Below, one piece after another: positions 17,359 through 45,369 of a stretch of DNA of 64,000 nucleotides. Position 1 is the first letter of the stretch, and each line of letters begins with the position of its first letter. Position numbers and translations under genes: made by a program. The DNA comes from an uncultured Alphaproteobacteria bacterium. Lineage in GTDB: Bacteria > Pseudomonadota > Alphaproteobacteria > CAAGCB01 > CAG-977. Under the pieces are notes generated by a model. That model saw only the letters and a list, made by a program, of their open reading frames with translations. It was not told the DNA's origin and ran no database searches. The stretch lies in assembly GCA_937912005.1 (NCBI GenBank), contig CALDOX010000015.1:180303-244302 (forward strand). Direction: 5' to 3'.

Positions 17359-17374
17359 TGGCACGCCTATTGCA
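17359..17374 (+). promoter_or_regulatory. Sigma-54 promoter (TGGCAC-N5-TTGCA) driving fliK-flgD-flgE.
   Basis: A perfect consensus, tTGGCACgcctaTTGCAtt, lies about 40 nt upstream of the fliK ATG. A sigma-54 activator gene (flbD) is present in the same locus. Confidence 0.7.
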
Positions 17375-19391: not shown

Positions 19392-19404
19392 GGGAGGAAA
19401 CGTC

Positions 19405-20142
19405 ATGACTACATCGGTAAGCGGAATAGACGTTTTAAACAAAGCCGTCAGCTCGGGAAAAGATTCCGGCAGCTCGAAAACGCAGCTGTTCGACGATATG
19501 GAAGCATTCCTCTTTTTGCTGACTCAGCAATTAAAATACCAGGACCCTTTGGATCCTATGGATACCAGCGAATACACCAACCAACTGGTCCAATACGCTC
19601 AGGTCGAACAAAGCATCCAATCCAACACTTATTTGGAAACGATCGTGGCGCAAAACGTCAATGCCGTTGCGACTCAGGCGGTCAGCTATATGGACCAGTA
19701 CATACAAGCCCTCGGCAGCGGACTGCCGCTGCAGAACGGAAGCGCTAAATTTTCCTATGTGTTGGGAGCCGACGCCTCTTCATGCGTCGTCGCCATCAAA
19801 GACGCGTCAGGAAACTTTGTGAAAAGCTTTACCGGTGTCGAACAGTCCGCGGGACGTCATGAAATGACATGGGACGGCAAAGACAATTACGGCAATCAGC
19901 TGGAAGACGGAGCTTACACACTTGTCGTAACGGCTCTGGATTCCACAGGTTCCTCTGTTGAAGTGCAGACGACCGTTTTCGGAAAAGTCACCGGTGTGGC
20001 TTATGACGGTGACAGCGTCGCCATCGGTATGGGCGGCATCGCCGTTGATATGAACAGCGTTCTGGCCATCCACAGCAAAGATGATGTTGTTTCAGCTTCG
20101 AACAACGCTTCTGAAACGGAAGAGGGAATACAAACGGTTTAA
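19405..20142 (+). CDS. flgD: Flagellar hook assembly/capping protein FlgD.
   Basis: The FlgD N-terminal motif (FLFLLTQQLKYQDPLDPMDTSEYTNQLVQYAQVEQ) and a C-terminal Ig-like domain. Confidence 0.85.
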   Translation: MTTSVSGIDVLNKAVSSGKDSGSSKTQLFDDMEAFLFLLTQQLKYQDPLDPMDTSEYTNQLVQYAQVEQSIQSNTYLETIVAQNVNAVATQAVSYMDQYIQALGSGLPLQNGSAKFSYVLGADASSCVVAIKDASGNFVKSFTGVEQSAGRHEMTWDGKDNYGNQLEDGAYTLVVTALDSTGSSVEVQTTVFGKVTGVAYDGDSVAIGMGGIAVDMNSVLAIHSKDDVVSASNNASETEEGIQTV

Positions 20143-20230
20143 TACAAGCCGATCAGAAAATTCGGCATAAAACGGCGCTTCTTTATACAGAAACGTAAAA
20201 AGAAGGCCAAAAGAAAAAAGGAGAATGACA

Positions 20231-29149: not shown

Positions 29150-31270
29150 ATGGCAAACGAACCCGTCAAAGCAGGCTCCATTCCCTCGCCGGCAAACATT
29201 AAACAAGGCCTTTTCTCCATAGGAAGACGGTCGGATATCGCTTTGGCGCTGGGCATCGTTTTGATGCTGGTCATTTTGATTCTGCCGCTGGCGCCTTGGC
29301 TGTTGGACGTGGCCTTAGCGTTGTCATTGACCTTTTCCGTTTTGGTTTTAATGACTTCCATTTTTATTGAAAAGCCGATTCAGTTTACGTCTTTCCCGTT
29401 GGTTTTATTAATCACGACTCTATTTCGATTGGCGCTGAACCTGTCTTCCACCCGTTTAATTCTGGCCAACGGCTACAGAGGTCCCGAAGCCGCCGGTCAT
29501 GTCATTGCCGCGTTCGGCGGATTTATTATGAGCGGCAATTTCATCATCGGCGTGATCGTGTTCGCCATTTTGGTTTTGGTCAACTTTATGGTCATTACCA
29601 AAGGTTCCGGCCGTATCGCAGAAGTCGCGGCCCGTTTTGCTTTGGACGCGATGCCCGGCAAGCAAATGGCAATTGATGCGGATTTGTCTTCCGGTTTGAT
29701 TGACGAACCCGAAGCCCGCAAACGCCGTGACGAACTTTCGCAGGAATCCAGTTTTTACGGAGCTATGGACGGTGCTTCCAAATTCGTGCGCGGAGACGCG
29801 ATCGCCGGCCTTGTCATTACGGCGATCAACATCATTGCGGGAATCTTAATCGGCGTTCTGCAGCAAAACATGCCGTTTATGAAAGCGGCCAATACTTATA
29901 TGCGCTTAACGGTCGGTGACGGTCTGGTTTCACAAATTCCCGCTCTGATCATTTCCGTTGCGGCCGGTATTATGGTTTCCAAGGCGGGCATTTCCGGCGG
30001 CACGGAAAAAGTTTTGTTCGGCCAGCTGTCTCATTATCCGAAAGCGCTCGGTATGACATCTTTTCTGGCGTTTATGCTGGCGACGCTGCCCGGCACGCCT
30101 GCCGCGCCGTTTTTATTTTTAAGCGTCGTCACCGGAACAACGGCTTATTTCCTGATTCGTCAGCAGCAAAAAGCAAAAGAGGAAGCCGAACGGATGTTGT
30201 TGGAACAACAGCCGGAAACACCGCCGCCGATTGTGGAAGAACCTATCTCCAGCGTATTGAAAATGGATTTAGTGCGTCTGGAATTGGGTTACAGCCTGCT
30301 TTCCCTGATCAATGACACGTCCAATCGCCGACTGACCGATCAAATCAAAGCTTTAAGACGCGCTTTGGCTTTGGAAATGGGATTTGTTATGCCGTCCGTT
30401 CGTATTCAGGACAATATGCGTCTGCCCCCGAATACCTATGTCATTTATATCAAAGAAACAGAATCCGGACGGGGTGAACTGCGTCCCAATAAATTACTGG
30501 TCATGGATCCGCGCGGTGAAGAGATCGCATTGGAAGGGGAAAAAACGAAAGAACCGACTTTTGGTCTGGCCGCGATGTGGATTGATATGACGGCCAGAGA
30601 AGACGCAATGTTCCGCGGCTACACGGTTGTTGACTGCCCTACAATCATCACGACGCATATTACCGAACTGGTCAAAGCAAACATGTCCGAACTGCTGAGT
30701 TATGCGGAAACGCAAAAACTGCTGCAGGAACTGGATAAGGATCAACAAAAACTGGTTGAAGAACTGATTCCCAAGAAAATCACCATCGGCGGCGTACAGC
30801 GCATTTTACAAAACTTGCTGACGGAACGCGTATCGATTCGCGATTTGCCGACAATTTTGGAAGGCATATCCGAAGCATGTTCGGTTACGCAAAGTTTAAT
30901 GGTGATCACGGAACATGTCCGCACGCGTTTATCGCGCCAGATTTCAAATGCGGTTGCCGGACCTGACGGCATAATTCCTTTAGTGACTTTATCGGGCGAA
31001 TGGGAACAAAATTTTGCCGAGTCTCTTTCCGGACAGGGCGAAGAAAAGCAACTTTCCATGGCTCCCACTCAAATTCAAAAATTTATTTTGCGTATCCGTC
31101 AAGTCTTTGAAGACCTGGCAGCCCGCGGAGAATCGCCGGTTTTGCTGACCAGTCCGGGAATTCGTCCTTATGTCCGTTCAATTATTGAGCGCTTTCGCCC
31201 GACAACTGTGGTAATATCGCAGAATGAGATTCATCCGCGTGCAAAAATCAGAACGGTAGGACAAGTTTAG
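29150..31270 (+). CDS. flhA: Flagellar biosynthesis protein FlhA (export gate).
   Basis: 706 aa, the FlhA family. It has N-terminal TM helices and the conserved FHIPEP region. Confidence 0.95.
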   Translation: MANEPVKAGSIPSPANIKQGLFSIGRRSDIALALGIVLMLVILILPLAPWLLDVALALSLTFSVLVLMTSIFIEKPIQFTSFPLVLLITTLFRLALNLSSTRLILANGYRGPEAAGHVIAAFGGFIMSGNFIIGVIVFAILVLVNFMVITKGSGRIAEVAARFALDAMPGKQMAIDADLSSGLIDEPEARKRRDELSQESSFYGAMDGASKFVRGDAIAGLVITAINIIAGILIGVLQQNMPFMKAANTYMRLTVGDGLVSQIPALIISVAAGIMVSKAGISGGTEKVLFGQLSHYPKALGMTSFLAFMLATLPGTPAAPFLFLSVVTGTTAYFLIRQQQKAKEEAERMLLEQQPETPPPIVEEPISSVLKMDLVRLELGYSLLSLINDTSNRRLTDQIKALRRALALEMGFVMPSVRIQDNMRLPPNTYVIYIKETESGRGELRPNKLLVMDPRGEEIALEGEKTKEPTFGLAAMWIDMTAREDAMFRGYTVVDCPTIITTHITELVKANMSELLSYAETQKLLQELDKDQQKLVEELIPKKITIGGVQRILQNLLTERVSIRDLPTILEGISEACSVTQSLMVITEHVRTRLSRQISNAVAGPDGIIPLVTLSGEWEQNFAESLSGQGEEKQLSMAPTQIQKFILRIRQVFEDLAARGESPVLLTSPGIRPYVRSIIERFRPTTVVISQNEIHPRAKIRTVGQV

Positions 31271-31280
31271 AGAACTGTAA

Positions 31281-32267
31281 ATGAAGATTAAAACCTATAC
31301 CGCCCCGACAATGTCCGAAGCTATGGACCTATTGCGCCATGAGCTGGGGGAAAACGCGATTATCGTGTCAACTCAGCGATTGGGAACCGGCGCGGGAATA
31401 CGTCTGACCGCAGCTATAGAAGAAAATGACCGCGACATTGAAATCGAACAGCTGTATAACGACGAAGAACCTCAGGAAACGGAGCTGCAGCGCGCCGTTC
31501 GGGAAATATTGGCTTATCACGCCCTGCCCGAACCGTTAATTGAAAAAATCGTCCTGCATGTAAAAGAGTCTAAAAACAAAAGTTCTCTGGTATCTTTCGC
31601 TTCCGCTTTGGACACGGTCTTCAGTTTTCATCCGCTGCCCGAACAGATTAAAGGGCAGGCTTTTATGCTGACCGGCGCGGCAGGCAGCGGAAAAACCGTC
31701 ATTACGGGCAAGTTAGCCACCCGAGCTTGCTTATCGGGACATAAAGTCGGCCTGATTTCAGCGGACTCCGTACGCGCCGGCGCCGCCGAACAGCTGGTTG
31801 CTTTTACAAACATTCTGGATATCACGCTTTTAAAAGCGCGTTCTCCGGAAAATTTACAGTCTCATATTACCGTTTTGCGCAGGACTTGCGATCTGATTTT
31901 CATTGATATGCCGGCGTTTAACCCGTTTCAGCCGACCGACATGGAATATCTGACCGATTATATTGAAGCGGCAGACGCTTTGCCCGTCATGGTCATGCCG
32001 GCGGGAGTCGATCCGCTGGAATCCATGGAAACAGCGGAAGCCTTTGCCGAAGCCGGCGCAATTTATTTATTGGCGACGCGATTGGATGCCGCCCGACGCT
32101 TCGGCGGCGTATTGGCGGCGGCGGATGCCGGTCGTTTGACGCTGTGCGAAGCCAGCATGAGTCAAAACATCACCCGGGGATTGTCCCCGATCGACGCAGT
32201 TTCTCTGGCAAAATTGCTGTCGACATCATCGGAAGAATCCGATTCTGCTACAAGGAAAAAACCATGA
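31281..32267 (+). CDS. flhF: Flagellar biosynthesis GTPase FlhF (SRP-like).
   Basis: A C-terminal SRP-GTPase-like domain with a divergent P-loop (LTGAAGSGKTVITGKLA). Its position between flhA and fleN is the canonical flhA-flhF-flhG order. Confidence 0.65.
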   Translation: MKIKTYTAPTMSEAMDLLRHELGENAIIVSTQRLGTGAGIRLTAAIEENDRDIEIEQLYNDEEPQETELQRAVREILAYHALPEPLIEKIVLHVKESKNKSSLVSFASALDTVFSFHPLPEQIKGQAFMLTGAAGSGKTVITGKLATRACLSGHKVGLISADSVRAGAAEQLVAFTNILDITLLKARSPENLQSHITVLRRTCDLIFIDMPAFNPFQPTDMEYLTDYIEAADALPVMVMPAGVDPLESMETAEAFAEAGAIYLLATRLDAARRFGGVLAAADAGRLTLCEASMSQNITRGLSPIDAVSLAKLLSTSSEESDSATRKKP

Positions 32268-33079
32268 ATACGTCAACAACGCAAAACTCCTCTGAACAGA
32301 TACTGGCCTTAGCACCCAGAAAGGTTATGCGCCCTCAGGTCCGCAATATGATTGCAGTTGCTTCCGGAAAAGGCGGCGTCGGCAAAACCTGGTTTTCAAT
32401 CACGCTTGCCCATGCTTTCGCGCAAAACGGCTTAAAAACTTTGCTTTTTGACGGAGATCTGGGATTGGCGAATATTGATATTCAGCTGGGATTGATGCCG
32501 TCGCATGATCTGGGCAGCGTCATCGCCGGAAAGATCACGCTCAATCAGGCAATCTGCCACTATGAAGAAGGCGGCTTTGACATTATCGCCGGCCGGTCGG
32601 GCTCAGGCAGTCTGTCCAATGTACCGCTGAGCCGTCTGCAGCTGATCAACGATGATTTGCGTTTGTTGGCCGGCGGATATGACCGCGTGATCGTGGATTT
32701 GGGCGCCGGCGTGGAAAAACCCGTGCGTTTGTTTGCTTCTTCCGCGGCTACGTTATTGATTGTCTGCACGGATGAACCGACTTCTTTAACAGACGCTTAC
32801 GCATTCATCAAAATGGTTTGCATGGAACAGCCGCAGCCCAATATCAACATTGTTGTCAACTCGGCCAATTCCGCCCGGGACGGAGAAAGAACCTACACAA
32901 CGCTGTTGAAAGCCTGTCAGGGATTCCTGCGCATTTCACCGCCTTTGGCCGGCGTGATTCGCAGAGATACGCGCGTTCGGGACGCCATTCGCAATCAAAC
33001 ATCCATCCTGCGCCGCCATCCCAATACGGAAGCCGCCGAAGACGTTTTAACCATCGCCGCCCGCCTGACCAAAGAATAA
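32264..33079 (+). CDS. fleN: MinD/ParA-type flagellar number regulator FlhG/FleN.
   Basis: Deviant Walker A (VASGKGGVGKTWFSITLA). The start overlaps the flhF stop (ATGA). Confidence 0.8.
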   Translation: MNTSTTQNSSEQILALAPRKVMRPQVRNMIAVASGKGGVGKTWFSITLAHAFAQNGLKTLLFDGDLGLANIDIQLGLMPSHDLGSVIAGKITLNQAICHYEEGGFDIIAGRSGSGSLSNVPLSRLQLINDDLRLLAGGYDRVIVDLGAGVEKPVRLFASSAATLLIVCTDEPTSLTDAYAFIKMVCMEQPQPNINIVVNSANSARDGERTYTTLLKACQGFLRISPPLAGVIRRDTRVRDAIRNQTSILRRHPNTEAAEDVLTIAARLTKE

Positions 33080-33089
33080 AGGCTTTTAA

Positions 33090-35018
33090 ATGAGCAGCCC
33101 TACCGTTTCCCTTCAAAATTCGGGGCTCACTGCTCAAACGGCCGCGGCAGCGACGGTTGTATCCATTCCGGATGCGCCTGCGGAAATGCGGGAACTGCCC
33201 ACGGGATCAATTTTGCCGGCCGTATTCATTCCTGCCAAAACCGTATCGGAAATGCCGGTCATACAAATGACTTTGCCCGACGGCAAAGAATTGGCCGTTC
33301 CCGTCAAAAGCACGCATATGCTGCGCGTTCCGACACCGGTCAGCATAAAAATCCTGCCTTTCGACGCAAAAAAAACGATGACGGTCCGCGTCCACTTTTC
33401 AGCCCCTCTGCCCGATATCAAAAAAGCGATAAAAGACCTGCCGGAAGCTTTACAGTCACAAGACGCCACGGCTTCTTCCGTTCAAAAACATTCTATTCCT
33501 CTCAGAGCTTTCGTTCTGCGATCCGTTCCCGAACAAATTACAGCTTTGATGAATGAAATGGAATCTCCCGTCGAACAAAATCTGCCGCCTTTAAAACCGG
33601 AGCAAACCGTTCGATTGGAAATTTCTCCGCAATCGAATCAAACAATAAACGCATTAACAGAACATACGCGCCTTCCCGCTGTGCAGACGACAGATCAAAG
33701 CACTTTTCCCAATTCACCACCAAACACCGTTCCGGAAATATCCGAAACAAAGCCGGATTCTTTACCGTCCTTTTCGGCAAATACTTCCGTTTCAACACCC
33801 GAATCATCCGATATTTCTTCCTTTCCCGTAAAAGAAAGCGCTCCGGCTTCTGTTGTGCAATCAATACCGCGACAGGATATCCCCTCCTCTTTTCCGGCCG
33901 AAAATCAGGAAGCGCAAACATCCGTCATTTCTCCAAAAACGGAACCGGCATCGCCTTCCTTTTCTGTTCCACGAGAAAATCCGCCTGAAACCGTTTCACG
34001 GGCTTCTGCTCTCCCGACACAAACTCCCCCGGCTCTTTCCTTAGAAAAAAACGAACCGTTTATTAAAGATCATCCTCTGCCCCTTCCTGCGGAACCGGCG
34101 CCCGAACAAATCTCTTCCCCAACATCCTCATCTGCCGAAAAAACAACACAAATCTTGCCCTCTCCCTTCCCTTTAAAAGGAGTCGTTTTCGATTTTAAAG
34201 AACGCTCGGCTCCTCTGGTTATTACCAAAATAGGCGTATTGGCACTGGAAGAAAAAATTCAACTGCCGCATTTGACACCGGTCAATGTTCAAATTACGGA
34301 AATAGCCGAGCCGCCGGCATTCTCTTTAACGGAGCATACGGACAATCCCGTTTTCCGAGGAATTGAAGAAACGTTGAATTTGCTGCGGGACACGGATTCG
34401 GCATCGTTCGAATCTTTCAAAAACGCCCTGCCGCAAATCGGCAATAAATTGCCGGCGCAAATCATTTCTTTTATCAACACCGCTTCCCGAAACGTGCCGG
34501 TTTCTTCTTTTATCGGGGAATCAAGCGTCGTCGTATTGCAAAGTTTAGGTGAAAAGGGGCATAGTCTGCTTACTCAAATCGAAAAAGAAATCACCGCTTC
34601 ACCAAAAAAAGTCACGGATGGCCGAAGCTCTTGGAAAGGATGGACCGTTCCTTTTTTATCCGGCGCAATAGTCGAACCGGTTTCTCTTTATTTGCAAAAA
34701 CCGCACGAAAACGGCCACCGGCAAAAAGGAACAGTCTCCAAACCGAATGCCGTCCGTTTCGTTTTGGATTTGAATCTGACACGACTGGGCAATCTGCAAA
34801 TGGACGGACTGGCTCACCGCAGCGAGCGTCGGTTTGACTTGATCATACGCCATCAAAACGATTTGCCTGACGCTTTTGATGAAAAAATCCGTTTCATTTT
34901 CACACAGACTTTATCGGCGTTGAATTATACGGGAACGGTCAAGGTTGATCACACGGATCAATTTATCGTTTTAACTCAAGAACTTGAAACCGAATCAAAA
35001 CGGGGTGTTTGGGCGTGA
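33090..35018 (+). CDS. Proline/serine-rich protein with a FliK-like (Flg_hook) C-terminal domain. It may be a second length-control or flagellar accessory protein.
   Basis: 642-aa ORF. The central ~350 aa are Pro/Ser/Thr-rich and low in complexity. The C-terminal segment RFVLDLNLTRLGNLQMDGLAHRSERRFDLIIRHQND...IRFIFTQTLSALNYTG follows the L-x-L-x-LG-x-L pattern of the FliK C-terminal domain. The ORF is in-operon, 10 nt after fleN. Confidence 0.4.
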   Translation: MSSPTVSLQNSGLTAQTAAAATVVSIPDAPAEMRELPTGSILPAVFIPAKTVSEMPVIQMTLPDGKELAVPVKSTHMLRVPTPVSIKILPFDAKKTMTVRVHFSAPLPDIKKAIKDLPEALQSQDATASSVQKHSIPLRAFVLRSVPEQITALMNEMESPVEQNLPPLKPEQTVRLEISPQSNQTINALTEHTRLPAVQTTDQSTFPNSPPNTVPEISETKPDSLPSFSANTSVSTPESSDISSFPVKESAPASVVQSIPRQDIPSSFPAENQEAQTSVISPKTEPASPSFSVPRENPPETVSRASALPTQTPPALSLEKNEPFIKDHPLPLPAEPAPEQISSPTSSSAEKTTQILPSPFPLKGVVFDFKERSAPLVITKIGVLALEEKIQLPHLTPVNVQITEIAEPPAFSLTEHTDNPVFRGIEETLNLLRDTDSASFESFKNALPQIGNKLPAQIISFINTASRNVPVSSFIGESSVVVLQSLGEKGHSLLTQIEKEITASPKKVTDGRSSWKGWTVPFLSGAIVEPVSLYLQKPHENGHRQKGTVSKPNAVRFVLDLNLTRLGNLQMDGLAHRSERRFDLIIRHQNDLPDAFDEKIRFIFTQTLSALNYTGTVKVDHTDQFIVLTQELETESKRGVWA

Positions 35019-36070
35019 AGGATAAAAAAGGATACTACGCCATACTGCATGTTGATGAAACGGCCAGCGAAAAGGAAATAAAAAACGCTTTTCGCCGCGA
35101 AGTTAAACTGTATCATCCCGACAAAAACCATGATCCGAACGCCGGAGCAATCTACCTGAAAATTAATGAATCTTATCGGGTTTTAACCGATCCCGATGCC
35201 CGGAAAGCTTACGACAATCTGCCTGATGCCGCCGCCGATTTTATTCCTTGCTGTCTATGCGGCCGGCATGCGCATCAGCCGCGGTTCATTTTTTTTGATG
35301 TCGGTGAAAACATTTCGCAAGGCGGCGTATATTGCCGCCCCTGCGCTTCCCGTCGGCAATTCAAAGCCGCAATGAAAATCTGGAAAAAATTTCTGATTTC
35401 TCCGGTTAAAAGCTGGCGTTTGTTAAAGCAAGCCAGAGCCATGCGGGAACAACCCGCTGACAAAAACTTTGATATGCTGCTGCAAAACGCGGCGGCTTTC
35501 AACAGCGAAAAACGGTATGGTTTAGCAAAATTTCTGGCGGAACAGGCGCGGCGGTTCGCGCCCGATCAGCCGGAACGTGCGAAAGTCAATACGTTCCTGA
35601 ACATTCTTCCCGAAGCTCCGTACCGCTATGAACCGGACGAATGGAAAATTAAAGGAACGGATACACTGCGTGTTTACCTCCCTGTTTTTATCGGCATTCT
35701 GATTATTTTATTGCTTTTTTCTTTTCCGTATCTTCCGCGCTTATTACCGGATAATTCTTATGATTTGGCTGATTATGAACAGCAAAACGTTATCTTTTTG
35801 CCTTTCGGCCTGTCCGATGAAACTCAGCTGTATCATACTCGAAAAGACAATGTTTCCGCTTATCAGGCTCCCAGTACAAAAAGCGGTATTTTAGCTGTTT
35901 TACCGGCACAAACAACGGTCCGTATGACGGGATATGTACCGAAGACACCTTGGGTACAGGCGATGACGCATCAAGGCTTGATTGTCTTTATCCGCCGATC
36001 CGATTTGGAAAAAGGAGTCGGTGCGGAAAAAAAGCCTTACAATTCAAAAATCCTGCCGACAAAAGATTAA
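35009..36070 (+). CDS. J-domain (DnaJ-like) membrane protein with a Cys-rich segment and a C-terminal SH3-like domain.
   Basis: J-domain (YYAILHVDETASEKEIKNAFRREVKLYHPDKN). A CCLCGRHAH...CRPCAS Cys cluster, a TM helix (VFIGILIILLLFSFPYL), then a C-terminal region. Its TTG/GTG start overlaps the upstream stop, so it is translationally coupled to the flagellar operon. Confidence 0.65.
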   Translation: MGVKDKKGYYAILHVDETASEKEIKNAFRREVKLYHPDKNHDPNAGAIYLKINESYRVLTDPDARKAYDNLPDAAADFIPCCLCGRHAHQPRFIFFDVGENISQGGVYCRPCASRRQFKAAMKIWKKFLISPVKSWRLLKQARAMREQPADKNFDMLLQNAAAFNSEKRYGLAKFLAEQARRFAPDQPERAKVNTFLNILPEAPYRYEPDEWKIKGTDTLRVYLPVFIGILIILLLFSFPYLPRLLPDNSYDLADYEQQNVIFLPFGLSDETQLYHTRKDNVSAYQAPSTKSGILAVLPAQTTVRMTGYVPKTPWVQAMTHQGLIVFIRRSDLEKGVGAEKKPYNSKILPTKD

Positions 36071-36594
36071 GCTTTTTTCTTTTCTTTCAGAATGGCGTCG
36101 ATATTCAGCCGAATTTGTCCGGCTTCCGGATTGTCTTTCAAATTATAAAGCAACACATGAACACCGGCCGTTTTCAGCATTTTTTGACGTCTTAAATGTC
36201 GTTTTTTGTTTTCGCCTTCCAATTCGACGACACATACGATATTTAAAGCCGCATCGCAAATAACAAAATCGACCCGTTTCAAATTGAACGGCGCCCAAAA
36301 ATCCCAATGATTTGTTTCGATCAAAGCCCGCATCGACACATGAGGGAAAACAAAAAAGCCTTCCGGAATCGACCGCCGCAGCAAAAGAAAAAATTTTTCT
36401 TCATCGTCATTTAAAACTTTTTTCGGTTTATAGTATTTGCTGATAATATCGCGCTGTTTATCAGAAATCCACGCCAACAGGCACAACATAATGTATCCGC
36501 CCAATAACAGACCGATAATCGATACCATTACATAAACGCCGTTATTGGAAAGAAGCGTCTGCACCAATGACATCAAAGTCGTTTCATCGTCCAT
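36067..36594 (-). CDS. Membrane-anchored DUF2726-like (NERD/PD-(D/E)xK-like) protein.
   Basis: N-terminal TM (VMVSIIGLLLGGYIMLCLLAWI). The C-terminal region with RVDFVICD...VVELEG resembles DUF2726. Confidence 0.45.
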   Translation of the reverse strand: MDDETTLMSLVQTLLSNNGVYVMVSIIGLLLGGYIMLCLLAWISDKQRDIISKYYKPKKVLNDDEEKFFLLLRRSIPEGFFVFPHVSMRALIETNHWDFWAPFNLKRVDFVICDAALNIVCVVELEGENKKRHLRRQKMLKTAGVHVLLYNLKDNPEAGQIRLNIDAILKEKKKA

Positions 36595-37922: not shown

Positions 37923-40900
37923 CTACGCCTTTTCGATTTTGAACGTCACTGCCGCGTCACCGACATCTTCGGTATCGCCTTTCATATTCGCTTGTTCTTC
38001 AAACGAAACGGCAAGGACCTGTTCGGAAATGTACGCTTTGTTTTCCTTCAGGGCTTCCAGAACCGTATTATCGGCGGACGTGTAAGCCACCGTGATTCTG
38101 TCAGATACGTCAAAGCCCGAGTCTTTGCGTTTTTGCTGAATGACGCGCACGAAGTCGCGGGCGATGCCTTCGCGTTCCAGTTCGGGACGCAAGGTTACGT
38201 CCAAAACGACCACCGCCGTATTATCCGGCAGAGCCTGTCCCGCGTTGCCGTCTTTCAGGACAAGACGCAGTTCGAATTCTTCCGGCAACAAAGTCTGTCC
38301 GGCGATCGACAAAGTGCCGTCCGCGTTTTTCGACCAGTCGTTTGTTTTGGACGCGGCCAGAATGTCTTTCATGAACCGCCCCAAACGCTTGCCGACCAAC
38401 GGCGTGATGATGTAAAGCGTCTGATCGGCCAAATCGGAAACGTCTTTGCCGAACGCGACTTCCTTAACGTTTACTTCGTCTTTGATCAGGTCGATGTAAT
38501 CCGCCAGACGACCGGCATTGTTGCCCGCCACCGTCATGGAAGCCAACGGCAGACGGTTGCGCAGTTTGTGATCTTCGCGGATCGACTTCGCGGTCGAACA
38601 GACGGCGCGCACGAAGTCCATATCGGCGACAAGCTTGTCGTCCGCCGCAAAGGCGTTATAATCGGGATAATCCGTCAAATGGACGCTTTCCTCCCCCGTC
38701 AGGGCGCGGTAGATGTATTCGCACGTCAACGGCATCAGCGGCGCGATCGCCTTCGTCAGCGTTACCAAAACCGTATACAGCACGTCAAAGGCTTCCTGTC
38801 CGTTGGAAACGTCCCAGAAACGGGCGCGGGAACGGCGGATGTACCAGTTGTTCATCAGCTCCAGAAAATCGGACACGTCGGAACACGCGGCGACGATGTC
38901 GCAAGCATCCAGTTTTTCCGTCAGGCCTTTGACCAGCTCGCGCGTCTTTGCCAGAATATAGCGGTCCAGCACGTCTTTTGCCGTCGTCGTAAAGTTCGCT
39001 TTCAATCCTTCGGCGTTGGCGTACAGCGTGAAGAAGTAGAACGCGTTCCACAACGGAATCAAAGCCTTGCGGGACGACTTCGCGATTTCCTTGCCTTCGC
39101 GGTCGATCGACAGGTTGCCGCCGCGCAAAATCGGCGAGGACACCAAAAACCACCGCAGAGCGTCCGATCCCAGCGTGTTGAACACGTCGGTCGGATCGGG
39201 ATAGTTGCGCAGACGTTTGGACAGCTTTTGCTGATTCTCGTCCAAAACGACGCCGTGGCACAGACAGGTCTTAAAGGGGGCGCGATCAAACAGAGCCGTG
39301 CTCATCACCATCAGCGTATAGAACCAACCGCGGGTCTGCGCCAGATATTCGACGATGAAATCCGCCGGAGAATGGTTTTCGAACCATTCCTTGTTTTCAA
39401 ACGGATAATGGACCTGCGCGAACGGCATCGAACCGGATTCGAACCAACAGTCCAGAACGTCCTCGACGCGGCGCATCATCGACTTGCCGGTCGGATCGTC
39501 CGGATTCGGACGGACGAGCGTGTCGATGAACGGACGGTGCAGATCGGTTACTTTAACGCCGAAATCCTTTTCCAGTTCGGCGATCGAACCGTACACGTCC
39601 ACGCGCGGATACTTCGGATCGTCGGATTTCCACACGGGAATCGGCGTTCCCCAGAAACGGTTTCTGGAAATCGACCAGTCGCGCGCACCTTCCAGCCACA
39701 TTCCCATCGCGCCGTTTTTGACGTGTTCGGGGATCCAGTTGATCGTCTTGTTGTTTTCCACCATACGGTCGCGGAATTCAGTCACTTTGACGAACCAGCT
39801 GTTGATCGCCTTGTAGATCAGCGGCGTGTCCGTGCGCCAGCAGTGCGGATAGTTATGCTTGTACATTTCCTTACGAACCAATTTTCCTTCCGCTTTCAGG
39901 CGTTTGATGATCGGTTCGTTCGTTTCAAAGACCTGCATTCCTTCGTAATCCGGCACTTCTTTGGTAAAGCAGCCTTTGCCGTCAACGGGACAAATGACCG
40001 GAATGTCATACGGTTGGCAGGCGATCATATCGTCTTCACCGAATCCGGGGGCGATATGAACGATACCGGTACCGTCTTCGGTCGAAACGTAATCCGCCTG
40101 AATGATTTGGAAGCAGTTTTTCGTTCCCGCAAAGTAATCAAACAACGGCTGATAGGTGCGTCCGACCAAATCCGCGCCCCTGACCGTGCGGACTTTTTCC
40201 GCCTTGGCCAGTTCGCGCTTGTATCTGCCCGCCAACGCCTGCGCGATGACGTACTGAATGCCGTCCTCTTCGTAAACGTCGTAGTCGATATCCTTGTTGA
40301 CGCACAAAGCCAAATTGGACGGCAGGGTCCACGGAGTCGTCGTCCATGCCAACACTTTGACGGGCTTTGTTTCGCCTTCAACCGGATTCAGCGTGAACAT
40401 CACGGTTACGGACGGGTCTTCGCGTTCGCGGTACGAGTTGTCCATACGCGTTTCAAAGTTCGATACCGGCGTTTCGGCCGCCCAGCTGTAGGGCAAAATG
40501 CGGACGCCTTCGTACATCAGGCCTTTTTTGTACAGCTCTTTGAACGCCCAGATGATGGATTCCATATACGGCAGATCCATCGTTTTGTAATCGTTGTCAA
40601 AAGCGACCCAACGCGCCTGACGGGTAACTGTTTGCTCCCATTCGTTCGTGTACATCAGCACGCGTTCTTTGCACGTTTCGTTGAACTTGCCGATTCCGAA
40701 TTTGGAAATCGCGGCGCGTCCGGAAATGCCCAGAAACTTTTCCGTATCCATTTCCGCGGGCAACCCGTGGCAGTCCCAACCGAAACGACGTTCGACACGA
40801 CGGCCGCGCATCGTCTGATAACGGGGAATGATGTCTTTCACATATCCCGTGACCAAATGCCCGTAATGCGGCAGACCGTTCGCGAACGGAGGGCCGTCGT

Positions 40901-41060
40901 AAAACACATATTCGTTAGAGCCTTTTTCACCGGCGGCACGATTGTTGACGGACTTTTTAAAAGTGCCGTTCTCGCGCCAAAACTTTAAAATGTCTTCTTC
41001 CAAAGCCGGAAAATCGGCTTTCGGGCTGACTTCGGGATAATGTTTTATTTTTTCGGACAT
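37923..41060 (-). CDS. ileS: Isoleucine--tRNA ligase, type 2 (eukaryote-like).
   Basis: 1045 aa. N-terminus FYDGPPFANGLPHYGHLVTGYVKD (HIGH region) plus a KMSKS-type region. The length and sequence style match type-2 IleRS. Confidence 0.9.
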   Translation of the reverse strand: MSEKIKHYPEVSPKADFPALEEDILKFWRENGTFKKSVNNRAAGEKGSNEYVFYDGPPFANGLPHYGHLVTGYVKDIIPRYQTMRGRRVERRFGWDCHGLPAEMDTEKFLGISGRAAISKFGIGKFNETCKERVLMYTNEWEQTVTRQARWVAFDNDYKTMDLPYMESIIWAFKELYKKGLMYEGVRILPYSWAAETPVSNFETRMDNSYREREDPSVTVMFTLNPVEGETKPVKVLAWTTTPWTLPSNLALCVNKDIDYDVYEEDGIQYVIAQALAGRYKRELAKAEKVRTVRGADLVGRTYQPLFDYFAGTKNCFQIIQADYVSTEDGTGIVHIAPGFGEDDMIACQPYDIPVICPVDGKGCFTKEVPDYEGMQVFETNEPIIKRLKAEGKLVRKEMYKHNYPHCWRTDTPLIYKAINSWFVKVTEFRDRMVENNKTINWIPEHVKNGAMGMWLEGARDWSISRNRFWGTPIPVWKSDDPKYPRVDVYGSIAELEKDFGVKVTDLHRPFIDTLVRPNPDDPTGKSMMRRVEDVLDCWFESGSMPFAQVHYPFENKEWFENHSPADFIVEYLAQTRGWFYTLMVMSTALFDRAPFKTCLCHGVVLDENQQKLSKRLRNYPDPTDVFNTLGSDALRWFLVSSPILRGGNLSIDREGKEIAKSSRKALIPLWNAFYFFTLYANAEGLKANFTTTAKDVLDRYILAKTRELVKGLTEKLDACDIVAACSDVSDFLELMNNWYIRRSRARFWDVSNGQEAFDVLYTVLVTLTKAIAPLMPLTCEYIYRALTGEESVHLTDYPDYNAFAADDKLVADMDFVRAVCSTAKSIREDHKLRNRLPLASMTVAGNNAGRLADYIDLIKDEVNVKEVAFGKDVSDLADQTLYIITPLVGKRLGRFMKDILAASKTNDWSKNADGTLSIAGQTLLPEEFELRLVLKDGNAGQALPDNTAVVVLDVTLRPELEREGIARDFVRVIQQKRKDSGFDVSDRITVAYTSADNTVLEALKENKAYISEQVLAVSFEEQANMKGDTEDVGDAAVTFKIEKA

Positions 41061-41202: not shown

Positions 41203-44200
41203 ATGACGCAGGACACAGAAGCCGAATACAACTCGAATGCTTTTTCCGACGATACAAAAATGATGTTTTCCGAACAAAGCGGTTTGCCTGAACAAGTCAA
41301 ACCGCAAAAAACGGATAACAGCTTGATCGCCGCTGCCGCTTTAAGCATTGTCTGGGCCTTTTTGGTCATTGATTATCTGCTGTCCAGCGGTTGGTGGGCA
41401 GCACGTTTTGAAATGACTCCGCCCGAGTTTATGAGCATTATCGCCGGATCTTTGTCTCCGTTTGCTTTTATTTGGATTGCCGCCATTTATTTTTCTTCTC
41501 AGCGCAAATATGTCAAAGAAGCCCGAAAGCTGCGCAGTTATATTTTTGAATTTACGCATCCCAACGCCAAAAACAAATTATACGTCAAGTCCCTGTTGGA
41601 TGATATCCGCCAACAAACATCGGATTTAAACATTGTGTACGGCTTGTTGAAAGAATGCACAAACAACACGCAAAACGCTTTAAAAGACCGATTAAACGAT
41701 CTGAACCGCATTGTCGCCGCCCTTCAGGAAGACATCGAAACATCCGTTCATAAAATAGGGCAGCAAACGGAACTGCTTAACGAATCGTCCGTACAAATCA
41801 ATGAAAGAACAACAGAAGCTGCCGGATTGCTGGAAACGAACCTGACGGCCATTCAAACCGCAGCCGATCAATTTTCCGACCTGACATCTTCGGTTAATTC
41901 CGATTTGCAAACTGCTGTTCATCAACTGACCGAAACCGGCGATACGCTCTCCGACAAAACGCTGCGCATTTCTTCCGAAATTCGGGAACAACAAACATTA
42001 CTGCAAAACACCGCTGAAAACGTACGCGATATTATGACGCGTCAAACAGCCGCCGCAGCCGCGGAATTAAACCGTCAGAGCGCTTTTATTGTCGAAGCGG
42101 GGAATCGCATATTCGAGACAGTCAACCAACAATCACTCCGCGTCAAAGAGGCTGTTGAAAATCATGTAGCCGCCCTGACCGGCAGCGGCGAATCTATTGA
42201 AAATAATGTTTATTCCATTATCTCCGATTTAGAAACACAGATTTCTGTTCTGAACGATACGGCGCAATCCGCTCAAGACAACACGGAAAAAATGCTGTCC
42301 GGATTGGAACGGCGCATCAATATGCTTGAAGACCTTTTCAGCAAACAAATCGATACCGTTTCCGCCAACGACAAACAGCTGCTTGAAACAGCCGGACAAA
42401 TTCAAAACACCTTTAAAGAACAAAATGCGCTGCTGGATCAGGAAGCGGAAAAAATTATCACGCGTTTCAAAACGATTGAAACAACATTGGATACTTATAT
42501 TAATGAAATCAATTCGGCTTCGACAACCGCGATTGATCAAATTTCCGTCGTTTCCGAATCCCTGAGCGGAAAAGCGGGCCAGATTGCCGCCGTCGGCGAA
42601 CAAACCCGGACAGAAATATCGGCTGTTGACGAAGATATTTCAAACAGAGCCGGCCGTTTGACGGAAGCGGTTTCCAGATTGAAAGAACGGGCTGAAACCG
42701 TTTCGGCGGCTTTAACCGAGCATACTCAAAAACTGGCGGAAGCATTGGACGGCACAGAGCCGCGCTTATCCGCCATTCAGGAAAACATTCGGACAAGCCT
42801 TGCGGAACTGAACGACAACATAACCGCGACAGAAGAAAAAACGGAAACGGCTTGCCAGAAATTAATGAAGCAAAACAATGAGTTGTCAGATTTGACCGGT
42901 GCTTTGGTTTCTCAAGCGATTGTAACGGAAACATCTTTGGCTCAGCAACAAAAATACATTTCCAACGCTGCCGCAAAAATAGATGCGGCCAAAACCGATC
43001 TGAAAGAACAATCGACAGATTTGACGGATATTGCCGAATTGCTTGATTCGCGTGCGGCGGAAACGGTTTTGCGTCTGACCCGTTTATTCGAAGACACTCT
43101 GACGCAGTCCGGCAAAATCGTCGATCAGGTCAATACGCTGGATGCCAGCCTTTTAAGTAAAATCAACGCCTTGGATATGTCTTCGCAAAAGACGGTCATC
43201 GCCAACAATACGCTGCATGAAGAATTGGATCGCCATAAAGCGCTTTTGGACGCTTCCGCAAATCGGATGACCACCTACGCGGAAGAAATAAGCGCGGAAA
43301 TTGCCAGACAAACGACTCAAATGGATATTTCTTCCGAACTGATCCAATCCCGCTGTGAAAAAGTCGTTCAGCAAATTGACGAACAGTTCAGAAAATTAAC
43401 GGAAGACGCCCAAATTTTAATTGACAACACACAAAACGCTTCCACCGTGATGACGGATCAGTCCGAAAAACTTGAAACGCTCTTTAACCGGCAAAACTCA
43501 ACATTATCCGAAGTATCGGACAAACTGGCGGAACAAAGTTCTCAGGTTGCAACGATGCTTCGCGAACAATCCGAACAGGCGGATAAAGATTTGGAACGCC
43601 TTGTTTCCAGAATCAATTTAATTGAAGAAGGATTGAACGTTCAAACAAAAGAACTCTCCCACGCTTCCGAAATGACCATATCGCAGCTGGAAACCGTCGG
43701 AACAGCCTTAACGCGCCAAGCGGAAACATTGTCAACGCTCAGCGATGACACGAAGGAAAAAATAGCAGAAATCAGTTCTTCCGTTTCCGACGCCACGACA
43801 AAATTATCGGAAATGGCGCAGATCGCCTGCCAACGCAATTCCGAATCTTTATCCGCTTTGGAAGCCAAACAAAATGACTTTAAGCAATCCGCAGACGATT
43901 TGATGCAGAGAATCCTTGCTTTGCAGGATGAAATATCGCAGCAAACCGACAATTTGCAAAAACAGTCTGTCAAATCGACACAGCAAGCCGTTATGGTACG
44001 CGATTCCATGCAACGGCATATTGTTGATCTGGGAGACGTGGCCAATATCGTGGCAACGCAATCCCGTATGGGGGAAGCGGCGCTAAGCAATCAGATCAAT
44101 TATCTGAAAGAAGCGGCGGAAAACGTTATGACGCACATCCGAAGCATTAATGAAGCGGTTCGTCAGAATACAAACGATTTGTTGACCGCGTCTTCGCGAA

Positions 44201-45369
44201 TCGGTTTTGAATTGGATGCGATGGGTGAAAATTTGCGCCGCAGAAATGAGGAAGCATCCAAATCTGCCGAAGACAGTTTGGCCAGATCGCAGGCCGCCGC
44301 TCAATTTTTGGAAGAAAAAGCTATTCTTTTATCCGATATGACCGAACAGGTAACGAACAATCTGACGACGGCCGGCAATGAATTTTCAGCCCATGCCAAT
44401 ATGATCGAAGCTGCCGGACAAATCGCCAGGGAACAGCTGGAAACGACGGGAGAATCTTTCCTGGTTCAATCTCATCAGCTGACCCGTATTTCCGAAGACG
44501 CACAAAAGGCCGTTAAAAACCTGAGTATTGTTATGCGGGAACGGGCGGTTGATTTCAATAAAACCGCCGAAGAAGCCGGCGCCCGGGTACGCAGTATGAA
44601 TGATACCATCATACAGATCGAAAAAGAATTTGAAGAAATGTCAAACAAAGGCGTTATTCAAATTGACCTGGCCGGCCAGCGTCTGCGCTCCATGCTCAGC
44701 GAAGTGGCCGGAAATTCCGAACGCATTGCCGTTGAAGTGCGTAAATCCGGCGAACAGTTTGTCGATCAGTCGGATTTGTTGTCCGTCGCTGCGGATGACG
44801 CATTAAAACGGCTGCAGAATTTATTGAATATCATGCGTGAAAACGCCAAAGAAATTCAGGAATCCGGCGAAAAGATTTCGGCTCAGTCTCTGAAATTGGG
44901 CGGTGCGTTCAACAGACAGGTTCAGTCTTTGATTTCCGCCTCCCGATCGGCGGAAGAATACATTACCGCATTGGATAAAAGAAAAGAAGAAGCCGATACG
45001 GATCGTTTTATGAAAGAAGCCTCTTTTATTCTGGAAAGGCTGCAGTCTTTGGGTGTTGATATGGCGCGCATTTATACGCCAAATGTTGAAGAAGACCTTT
45101 GGAAACGGTATTATTCCGGCGACAGAAGCGCGTTTATTCGTCATCTGTCCCGCGCAGTCGACAAACAACAAGTACGAAAAATAACGGAAACTTTTACGGA
45201 AAACGCTGAATTCAGAGAATATGTTTCCCGCTATATTGCCGAATTTGACAGTATTTTATCCCGCGCTCAGGAAAATGAACGCTCTGATATTTTAACCGGT
45301 ATTTTGCTGGGCTCCGAAGCGGGACGTTTGTACATGCTTCTATCCAAAATCTTCAATAAGGAAGCTTAA
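41203..45369 (+). CDS. Large two-TM coiled-coil protein with TipN-like topology (candidate polarity/flagellar-placement landmark).
   Basis: 1388 aa. It has a ~40-aa cytoplasmic head and two TM helices (LIAAAALSIVWAFLVIDYLLS; IIAGSLSPFAFIWIAAIYF). About 1290 aa of Glu/Gln/Leu/Thr-rich heptad-like sequence follows, with no recognisable catalytic motifs. Confidence 0.45.
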   Translation: MTQDTEAEYNSNAFSDDTKMMFSEQSGLPEQVKPQKTDNSLIAAAALSIVWAFLVIDYLLSSGWWAARFEMTPPEFMSIIAGSLSPFAFIWIAAIYFSSQRKYVKEARKLRSYIFEFTHPNAKNKLYVKSLLDDIRQQTSDLNIVYGLLKECTNNTQNALKDRLNDLNRIVAALQEDIETSVHKIGQQTELLNESSVQINERTTEAAGLLETNLTAIQTAADQFSDLTSSVNSDLQTAVHQLTETGDTLSDKTLRISSEIREQQTLLQNTAENVRDIMTRQTAAAAAELNRQSAFIVEAGNRIFETVNQQSLRVKEAVENHVAALTGSGESIENNVYSIISDLETQISVLNDTAQSAQDNTEKMLSGLERRINMLEDLFSKQIDTVSANDKQLLETAGQIQNTFKEQNALLDQEAEKIITRFKTIETTLDTYINEINSASTTAIDQISVVSESLSGKAGQIAAVGEQTRTEISAVDEDISNRAGRLTEAVSRLKERAETVSAALTEHTQKLAEALDGTEPRLSAIQENIRTSLAELNDNITATEEKTETACQKLMKQNNELSDLTGALVSQAIVTETSLAQQQKYISNAAAKIDAAKTDLKEQSTDLTDIAELLDSRAAETVLRLTRLFEDTLTQSGKIVDQVNTLDASLLSKINALDMSSQKTVIANNTLHEELDRHKALLDASANRMTTYAEEISAEIARQTTQMDISSELIQSRCEKVVQQIDEQFRKLTEDAQILIDNTQNASTVMTDQSEKLETLFNRQNSTLSEVSDKLAEQSSQVATMLREQSEQADKDLERLVSRINLIEEGLNVQTKELSHASEMTISQLETVGTALTRQAETLSTLSDDTKEKIAEISSSVSDATTKLSEMAQIACQRNSESLSALEAKQNDFKQSADDLMQRILALQDEISQQTDNLQKQSVKSTQQAVMVRDSMQRHIVDLGDVANIVATQSRMGEAALSNQINYLKEAAENVMTHIRSINEAVRQNTNDLLTASSRIGFELDAMGENLRRRNEEASKSAEDSLARSQAAAQFLEEKAILLSDMTEQVTNNLTTAGNEFSAHANMIEAAGQIAREQLETTGESFLVQSHQLTRISEDAQKAVKNLSIVMRERAVDFNKTAEEAGARVRSMNDTIIQIEKEFEEMSNKGVIQIDLAGQRLRSMLSEVAGNSERIAVEVRKSGEQFVDQSDLLSVAADDALKRLQNLLNIMRENAKEIQESGEKISAQSLKLGGAFNRQVQSLISASRSAEEYITALDKRKEEADTDRFMKEASFILERLQSLGVDMARIYTPNVEEDLWKRYYSGDRSAFIRHLSRAVDKQQVRKITETFTENAEFREYVSRYIAEFDSILSRAQENERSDILTGILLGSEAGRLYMLLSKIFNKEA

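Follow-up and report, generated by a model that had tools for sequence, protein, structure and literature searches.

What do the genes at the far end of a flagellar gene string encode when no flagellar family model recognises them, and do they take part in building the flagellum? We examined this question in a 64,000-nucleotide (nt) stretch of contig CALDOX010000015.1 from an uncultured Alphaproteobacteria bacterium (hereafter the window), where a string of flagellar genes runs past fleN, the gene of the MinD-type ATPase FleN (also called FlhG), into two further open reading frames (ORFs), named here ORF-A and ORF-B. Neither of them was matched by any flagellar family model of Pfam or NCBIfam. 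Both ORFs were real genes, present where an initial annotation of the DNA had placed them (the start of ORF-B is discussed below), with full-length homologues at 40–99% identity: 27 for ORF-A and 42 for ORF-B. We found that ORF-A belongs to a very large family that has no curated model and whose gene is, almost without exception, the next one after fleN in flagellar loci of the Rhodospirillales type, and that ORF-B is a predicted membrane protein combining a J-domain, a zinc-ribbon-like element and an SH3b-type domain. From gene context and architecture we propose, with a probability of about 0.4, that the two proteins act as accessory factors for FlhF and FleN, the system by which the place and number of polar flagella are set.

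Gene order after fleN in relatives

The host was of the uncultured rumen/gut alphaproteobacterial type: its nearest database proteins came from 'MAG: Alphaproteobacteria bacterium' records (MAG, metagenome-assembled genome), and its species-representative relatives were rumen, faecal and human-gut MAGs. We detected an ORF-A homologue directly after fleN in 24 out of the 25 informative loci that were seeded with ORF-A. When one genome per species was scanned, we recovered 23 loci with an ORF-A relative, 20 of them with sufficient upstream sequence, and in 19 of these 20 the relative stood immediately after fleN, in a fliF...flhA-(flhF)-fleN string. The fleN-ORF-A order was present in Magnetospirillum moscoviense BB-1, in Magnetospirillum sp. 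LM-5 and in marine Rhodospirillales MAGs, and all four divergent family members that we looked up were also located directly after fleN. In three marine Rhodospirillales/Rhodospirillaceae MAGs, flhA was followed by fleN without an intervening flhF, and the ORF-A homologue was still the next gene (L026, 442–5006; L027, 4141–8706; L028, 6111–10798). Finally, twelve Azospirillum plasmids or chromids carried an ORF-A relative. In particular, AZO_p2 of A. lipoferum 4B had the order fliF-fliH-fliN-motA-sigma54 activator-flhA-GTPase-MinD/ParA-'hypothetical protein', the last gene being the ORF-A relative; WP_014188891.1 is the A. lipoferum orthologue of ORF-A.

The profile of the ORF-A C-terminal domain was searched against 1.84 billion representatives and matched 3250 clusters at 50% identity, of which 1998 reached E ≤ 1e-30. 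Most of the clusters were 500–690 amino acids (aa) long and they were named only as 'hypothetical protein'. Two family members, P0101 (UniRef A4TUT6, Magnetospirillum gryphiswaldense) and P0107, carry the public name 'DNA polymerase III', which is probably a misannotation arising from the Pro-rich low-complexity region.

ORF-B followed ORF-A in 16 out of the 28 ORF-A-seeded loci, namely in all those of the gut clade and in part of the Magnetospirillum group. We also seeded metagenome loci from the part of ORF-B outside the J-domain, and about 31 of these loci, those with 6 kb or more of sequence upstream, were informative; flhA-flhF-fleN-ORFA lay upstream of ORF-B in 23 of them, sometimes with 1–3 genes inserted. 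Insertions between ORF-A and ORF-B were located in some relatives (L043, 5565–7763; L083, 5991–7568; L064, 4072–7388) and comprised a gene for a DUF6782 metallopeptidase-like protein, a histidine kinase gene and three minus-strand genes in a block, among them one for an AraC/DJ-1-type regulator. The conservation of neighbourhood, which the initial annotation had put forward as a check on its flagellar assignment, was thus borne out, and homologues of neither gene were consistently located outside flagellar loci. Of the two genes, ORF-A is more tightly linked to flagellar loci, and its link is to fleN.

One metagenome contig (L040, 6001–10591) carried a gene for a ClpB-type disaggregase next after the ORF-A homologue. 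ClpB-type disaggregases are another partner of DnaK; this arrangement may be a coincidence.

Architecture of the two proteins

Pfam and NCBIfam scans of ORF-A and 58 members of its family returned no match. The protein had no transmembrane (TM) helix (Kyte-Doolittle maximum of 1.25 over 19 residues) and no recognisable signal peptide, and its sequence was divided into three parts (Table 1). The N-terminal part was conserved, and the AlphaFold2 (AF2) model placed strands at residues 21–102 with a predicted local distance difference test (pLDDT) score of 66–85; these were the only strands at that level in an otherwise poor model (mean pLDDT 49.5). The Pro-rich linker that had been read from the sequence at the outset was confirmed at residues 186–355 (17% Pro, 18% Ser, 10% Thr). 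Its ~170 residues were predicted to be disordered, were poorly conserved and unalignable among homologues, and varied in length from 122 to 187 aa across 35 of them. The C-terminal domain consisted of a beta-module, a helical segment and a predicted beta-beta-beta-alpha core, which bore the family signature RFxLDLxLSRLGxxQMDGL...FDLIxR. The N-terminal beta-module of ~50 residues recurred at aa 357–407, where the C-terminal domain begins (N-module compared with this middle module by hhalign: probability 55%, P = 1.2e-4). Profile searches of PDB sequences with ORF-A gave chance matches only, and fold searches gave noise, with no FliK among the results. FliM, HubP and PopZ were considered as identities of ORF-A and rejected for want of supporting matches.

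According to the initial annotation, the C-terminus of ORF-A followed the Flg_hook/FliK pattern and the protein could be a second ruler, alongside a bona fide fliK upstream. The upstream gene was indeed a genuine fliK (Pfam Flg_hook, E = 2.7e-14), but Flg_hook (PF02120) matched neither ORF-A nor any of 24 + 34 family members. The hhalign comparison of ORF-A with the FliK of the window alone gave 0.3% probability. We then assembled a Flg_hook alignment from that FliK and eight FliK C-terminal regions of plasmid records (five of them annotated as FliK); against it the ORF-A profiles, the deeper one included, reached 0.3–1.6% with only 21 columns aligned. Within these comparisons, hhalign repeatedly placed RFxLDLxLSRLGxxQMDG on the FliK hairpin 'xIxLxPxELGxIxV'. 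The local resemblance to FliK is real, but homology of ORF-A to FliK is not supported: the pattern came down to a short motif without statistical support, and neither the profile-profile comparisons nor the fold searches revealed similarity to the FliK C-terminal domain. ORF-A is like FliK in its three-part layout with a Pro-rich spacer, in the short hairpin motif of its C-domain, in lacking a TM helix and a signal peptide, and in the location of its gene in a flagellar locus; it differs in having no significant sequence, profile or fold similarity, in its folded beta-modules and extra helical segment, and in the tie of its gene to fleN. We rejected FliK as the identity of ORF-A because there was no Flg_hook match, hhalign gave at most 1.6%, and the window holds a genuine FliK elsewhere.

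All the elements that the initial annotation had read in ORF-B, that is the J-domain, the Cys cluster, the TM helix and the SH3-like domain, were recovered in our analysis. The AF2 model had a mean pLDDT of 82.9, and in an alignment of 25 homologues (40–82% identity; residues numbered from TTG 35009) the HPD motif, C81, C84, C109, C112, the QPR motif and several SH3 residues were invariant. The J-domain had the PF00226 fold with HPD between helices II and III. The four Cys residues were spaced as CxxC, 24 residues, CxxC around a beta-hairpin (model strands 92–97 and 103–108), and the C-terminal domain had the beta-barrel of the bacterial SH3b type (PF08239, SH3_3). In the Magnetospirillum-type orthologues, SH3_3 scored 35.2 bits in L020 (above the Pfam cut-off) and 26.7 bits in L021 (just below it). 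Orthologues at 25% identity (Magnetospirillum and related MAGs) kept HPD, the four Cys residues, QPR, the TM helix and the SH3b domain, and they added a periplasmic domain of ~150 aa; those of the Magnetospirillum type are ~500 aa long. Since Lys/Arg residues precede the TM helix and acidic residues follow it, ORF-B is predicted to be a bitopic inner-membrane protein with its N-terminus inside and its C-terminus outside.

The NCBIfam matches of ORF-B were to the J-domain only, far below every equivalog cut-off, and neither PF00684 nor PF01556, the marks of a type I DnaJ, was matched. DnaJ, DjlA, CbpA and TopJ were all rejected as identities of ORF-B, the match being confined to the J-domain. 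Unlike in classical DnaJ, a G/F region, a CxxCxGxG zinc finger and C-terminal client-binding domains were not detected in ORF-B. DjlA of E. coli is likewise membrane-anchored and has a J-domain with HPD, but its TM helix is N-terminal and its J-domain C-terminal, an order opposite to that of ORF-B, which scored 20.1 bits against the cut-off of 162 of NCBIfam PRK09430.

ORF-B had not been recognised in the initial annotation as a described flagellar component, and this assessment stood. We found no description of ORF-A or ORF-B in the searchable literature, the coverage of which is incomplete, so that this is weak evidence; searches of it for Magnetospirillum, Azospirillum and Rhodospirillales returned no described J-domain or SH3 flagellar protein and no post-fleN gene. 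There is, however, a functional precedent in SflA, a single-pass membrane J-domain protein that controls flagellation in the flhF/flhG context of Vibrio (PMC7226244). From N- to C-terminus, SflA consists of a signal peptide, a periplasmic TPR/SLR domain, a TM helix and a cytoplasmic J-domain, and it is described as Vibrio-specific, encoded outside flagellar gene clusters and with a partner that is not known (PMC7226244). Compared with this published description of SflA, not by sequence, ORF-B resembles the Vibrio alginolyticus protein in that it is predicted to cross the inner membrane once, with its J-domain in the cytoplasm and a domain for protein or envelope interaction in the periplasm. 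Its predicted topology is opposite, however, the J-domain being N-terminal and the periplasmic SH3b domain C-terminal, and ORF-B has a zinc ribbon that SflA lacks. Because of the opposite topology, and of the TPR/SLR domain, the Vibrio-specificity and the location outside flagellar clusters of SflA, we regard ORF-B as a putative functional analogue of SflA, not homologous to it outside the J-domain, and not as a member of its family.

Boundaries of the predicted operon and other features of the window

Ten genes, all on the + strand, extended from fliF to the end of ORF-B, spaced by 9–26 nt or overlapping. The initial annotation had described the same string correctly except for a maximum gap of 25 nt, the largest gap being 26 nt. 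The start of fleN is most likely ATG 32264, which overlaps the flhF stop as ATGA. For ORF-B the most likely start is GTG 35015, which gives a GTGA overlap of 4 nt with the ORF-A stop. The resulting length of 351 aa matches that of the 99%-identical homologue P0001, and most ORF-B relatives start with 'M(S/T)DKKGYY'; the start first assigned, TTG 35009 (353 aa), is possible but less likely, while the stop at 36070 was retained.

Upstream, a strong intrinsic-terminator-like hairpin with a T-run (CCCCTGTCGG...CCGGCAGGGG) and a 360-nt spacer lay before fliF; the hairpin was directly 3' of flgE, ~300 nt before fliF, and separated the hook operon from the fliF operon. Downstream, the end of a convergent DUF2726 gene overlapped the ORF-B stop by 4 nt and marked the end of the + strand gene string; this neighbour was retained in L001 and L004, which are distant members of the clade. 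Because of the hairpin and spacer upstream, the convergent gene downstream and the tight spacing in between, the ten genes look like one unit. By every sequence feature considered, ORF-A and ORF-B belong to it, as the initial annotation had held: they are on the same strand, fleN and ORF-A are 10 nt apart and ORF-A and ORF-B overlap, neither junction leaves space for a terminator or a promoter-sized gap, and the order is kept in relatives. They are thus predicted to be co-transcribed with the genes before them, as the two final cistrons of a flagellar operon that is class-II-like. Terminator-like motifs were not more frequent than in shuffles (17 vs 11.7 ± 4.1), and a generic sigma-70 scan was likewise not above shuffles. 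We detected no + strand site with the sigma-54 consensus within 23833–36070, and no CtrA box was found near fliF.

The upstream fliK-flgD-flgE operon was preceded by a site that matched the sigma-54 consensus perfectly (TGGCACGCCTATTGCA), at a distance of 40 nt from fliK; it was the sole zero-mismatch sigma-54 site in the window. This site suggests that fliK-flgD-flgE is an FlbD/sigma-54 (class III-like) operon; fliF...ORF-B has no site of this kind.

Table 1. Features of the window, with the basis of each assignment or a remark.
Feature	Position	Strand	Basis or remark
Sigma-54 consensus site	17359–17374	+	TGGCACGCCTATTGCA
fliK-flgD-flgE operon	17415–23470		
fliK	17415–19391		Pfam Flg_hook
flgE	20225–23470	+	1081 aa
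Terminator-like hairpin and T-run	23505–23534	+	
fliF	23833–25446	+	Pfam/NCBIfam
fliG	25459–26478	+	Pfam/NCBIfam
fliH-like gene	26498–27412	+	Pfam/NCBIfam
fliN	27405–27791	+	Pfam/NCBIfam
FlbD-like sigma-54 activator	27818–29140	+	Pfam/NCBIfam
flhA	29150–31270	+	Pfam/NCBIfam
flhF	31281–32267	+	Pfam/NCBIfam
fleN/flhG, MinD-type ATPase gene	32264–33079 (most likely)	+	Pfam/NCBIfam
ORF-A, 642 aa	33090–35018	+	Family without Pfam or NCBIfam model
ORF-A, N-terminal region, aa 1–185	33090–33644	+	Small beta-module at ~aa 37–90
ORF-A, Pro/Ser/Thr-rich linker, aa 186–355	33645–34154	+	Composition, pLDDT ~30
ORF-A, conserved C-terminal domain, aa 356–642	34155–35018	+	Family alignments
ORF-B, membrane J-domain protein, 351 aa	35015–36070 (most likely)	+	Homologues, alignment, AF2 model
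ORF-B, J-domain with invariant HPD	35033–35215	+	Pfam E = 9.2e-20
ORF-B, four-Cys zinc-ribbon-like element, invariant QPR	35249–35344	+	Alignment, AF2
ORF-B, cytoplasmic helical TPR-like region, ~aa 110–199	35336–35605	+	
ORF-B, single TM helix, ~aa 222–240 (numbered from TTG 35009)	35672–35728	+	Kyte-Doolittle 2.53 for VYLPVFIGILIILLLFSFP
ORF-B, periplasmic SH3b-type domain	35822–36013	+	
DUF2726 gene, convergent with ORF-B	36067–36594	-	Pfam E = 2.6e-16
ileS	37923–41060	-	
998-aa ORF antisense to ileS	37992–40988	+	
1388-aa ORF beside ileS	41203–45369	+	No credible Pfam match

Three other features of the window were recorded. The hook protein encoded by flgE is unusually long; only its N- and C-terminal parts matched FlgE models, so that it carries a very large central insertion. 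The 1388-aa ORF beside ileS had a counterpart of similar size (1414 aa) at the equivalent position in L004, and it therefore encodes a conserved giant protein. The 998-aa ORF antisense to ileS is most likely a shadow ORF rather than a gene.

Possible roles in flagellar placement

In the accessory role that we propose, ORF-A would be a soluble partner or scaffold of FleN, since its gene keeps its place beside fleN also in loci where flhF is absent from that position. Genes of ATPases and their partners occur as pairs in minD-minE and parA-parB, to which the arrangement of fleN and ORF-A is similar, by analogy only, and long disordered spacers are common in polar organisers. ORF-A and ORF-B may be translationally coupled through their stop/start overlap. 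ORF-B would be fixed in the envelope through its SH3b domain, possibly via peptidoglycan. A J-domain with an intact HPD motif implies DnaK stimulation, and that of ORF-B could have this effect locally, with a flagellar client or ORF-A itself as the substrate of DnaK, and with the zinc ribbon and the TPR-like domain as candidate partner-binding modules. In this way ORF-B might favour or license the assembly of the basal body at the correct site. That it is an Hsp70-recruiting adaptor dedicated to flagellar assembly, as predicted in the initial annotation, is plausible.

Several points weigh against this accessory role. One ORF-A homologue, the sole one found outside a flagellar locus, occurred in an alphaproteobacterial MAG from horse faeces (L017, 9947–11932) with no flagellar gene within 10 kb, flanked by PPPDE-peptidase-like and xylose-isomerase-like TIM-barrel genes. 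About a quarter of the informative ORF-B-seeded loci (8 out of ~31) were non-flagellar, with ORF-B among unrelated housekeeping genes. ORF-A occurred without ORF-B in Azospirillum, in Magnetospirillum sp. 64-120 and in marine MAGs, and the two are therefore not an obligate pair. The SH3_3 match of ORF-B in the window (E = 0.002) was below the Pfam cut-off, and SH3b domains are not always peptidoglycan-binding. The putative partnership with FleN is drawn from gene adjacency only.

The same evidence allows a more far-reaching form of the proposal, which we consider unlikely. In Gammaproteobacteria, HubP/FimV and FipA are polar landmark partners that supply FlhF/FlhG with spatial information, and in HubP a periplasmic domain that binds peptidoglycan is found together with a TM helix and a long cytoplasmic region of low complexity (PMC12826062, PMC11620751). 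According to a 2025 review on FlhF/FlhG, it is still to be discovered what gives FlhF its spatial specificity in systems without HubP and FipA; the review mentions neither Alphaproteobacteria nor J-proteins (PMC12826062). ORF-A and ORF-B might be that missing FlhF/FleN spatial module in Rhodospirillales-type Alphaproteobacteria without HubP and FipA. ORF-B would then be a peptidoglycan-anchored protein and ORF-A a FleN-binding scaffold, the two jointly marking the assembly site; DnaK would be used to license or limit nucleation of the MS-ring and C-ring, and ORF-A alone would represent the ancestral and more widespread FleN partner. By analogy, ORF-B (SH3b and TM helix) and ORF-A (disordered region and C-domain) could jointly supply the features of HubP. 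There is, however, no homology: HubP has LysM and acidic repeats where ORF-B has SH3b and ORF-A a Pro/Ser/Thr linker, the FimV C-terminal motif is missing from ORF-A and ORF-B, and HubP has no J-domain.

Alternatively, ORF-A could above all serve ORF-B as client or cofactor. The J-protein would then pass the long disordered ORF-A on to DnaK and so keep it competent for assembly, and ORF-A would be part of the structure or scaffold of the basal body, on the cytoplasmic face, and not a regulator of FleN. The overlap of the ORF-A stop with the ORF-B start, present both in the window and in L001, would fit such a relation, as would the disordered segment of ~170 residues in ORF-A; J-proteins usually have a client-binding module, and the zinc ribbon and TPR-like domain of ORF-B could serve as one. 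We nevertheless judge this improbable, as ORF-A is widespread without ORF-B and ORF-B lies away from ORF-A in 8 loci.

It is still harder to hold that the linkage is positional only, with ORF-B a general envelope J-protein comparable to DjlA and ORF-A a lineage-specific filler, neither with a specific flagellar role. The non-flagellar contexts of about one quarter of the ORF-B homologues and of one ORF-A homologue (L017) are in line with such a reading, and so is the absence of matches to flagellar family models; yet the adjacency persists down to 25% identity across gut, soil, freshwater and marine lineages, with tight gaps or overlapping genes, and a gene order kept to this extent would be unexpected if no functional link existed.

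Last and least probable, ORF-A would be a second FliK-like ruler or substrate-specificity switch, which leaves the cell through the flagellar type III apparatus to measure another substructure; its conserved N-terminal part, its spacer of variable length (122–187 aa) and its conserved predicted beta-beta-beta-alpha C-domain agree with this, as do the recurrent placement of RFxLDLxLSRLGxxQ on the FliK hairpin, the lack of a TM helix and of a recognisable signal peptide, and the operon shared with the export gate protein gene flhA, but given the profile comparisons described above we do not think that ORF-A is a second hook ruler.

Factors of both kinds are known, accessory regulators of where flagella are placed as well as a membrane J-protein with an effect on flagellation; the architectures described here and the ORF-A family are new. 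How FlhF and FlhG/FleN obtain their positional information outside Gammaproteobacteria is an acknowledged open question (PMC12826062). The ORF-A gene almost invariably follows fleN in loci of the Rhodospirillales type, and the arrangement also exists in the genetically tractable Magnetospirillum and Azospirillum. Should the two genes prove to have no phenotype, the outcome would be an improved annotation of two conserved hypothetical genes. If the role proposed for ORF-B is true, it would be a second, independently evolved Hsp70 co-chaperone in flagellar placement after SflA of Vibrio. And if ORF-A and ORF-B do form the spatial module of FlhF/FleN, a new large family (>3000 clusters at 50% identity) would be a core component of the patterning of polar flagella.

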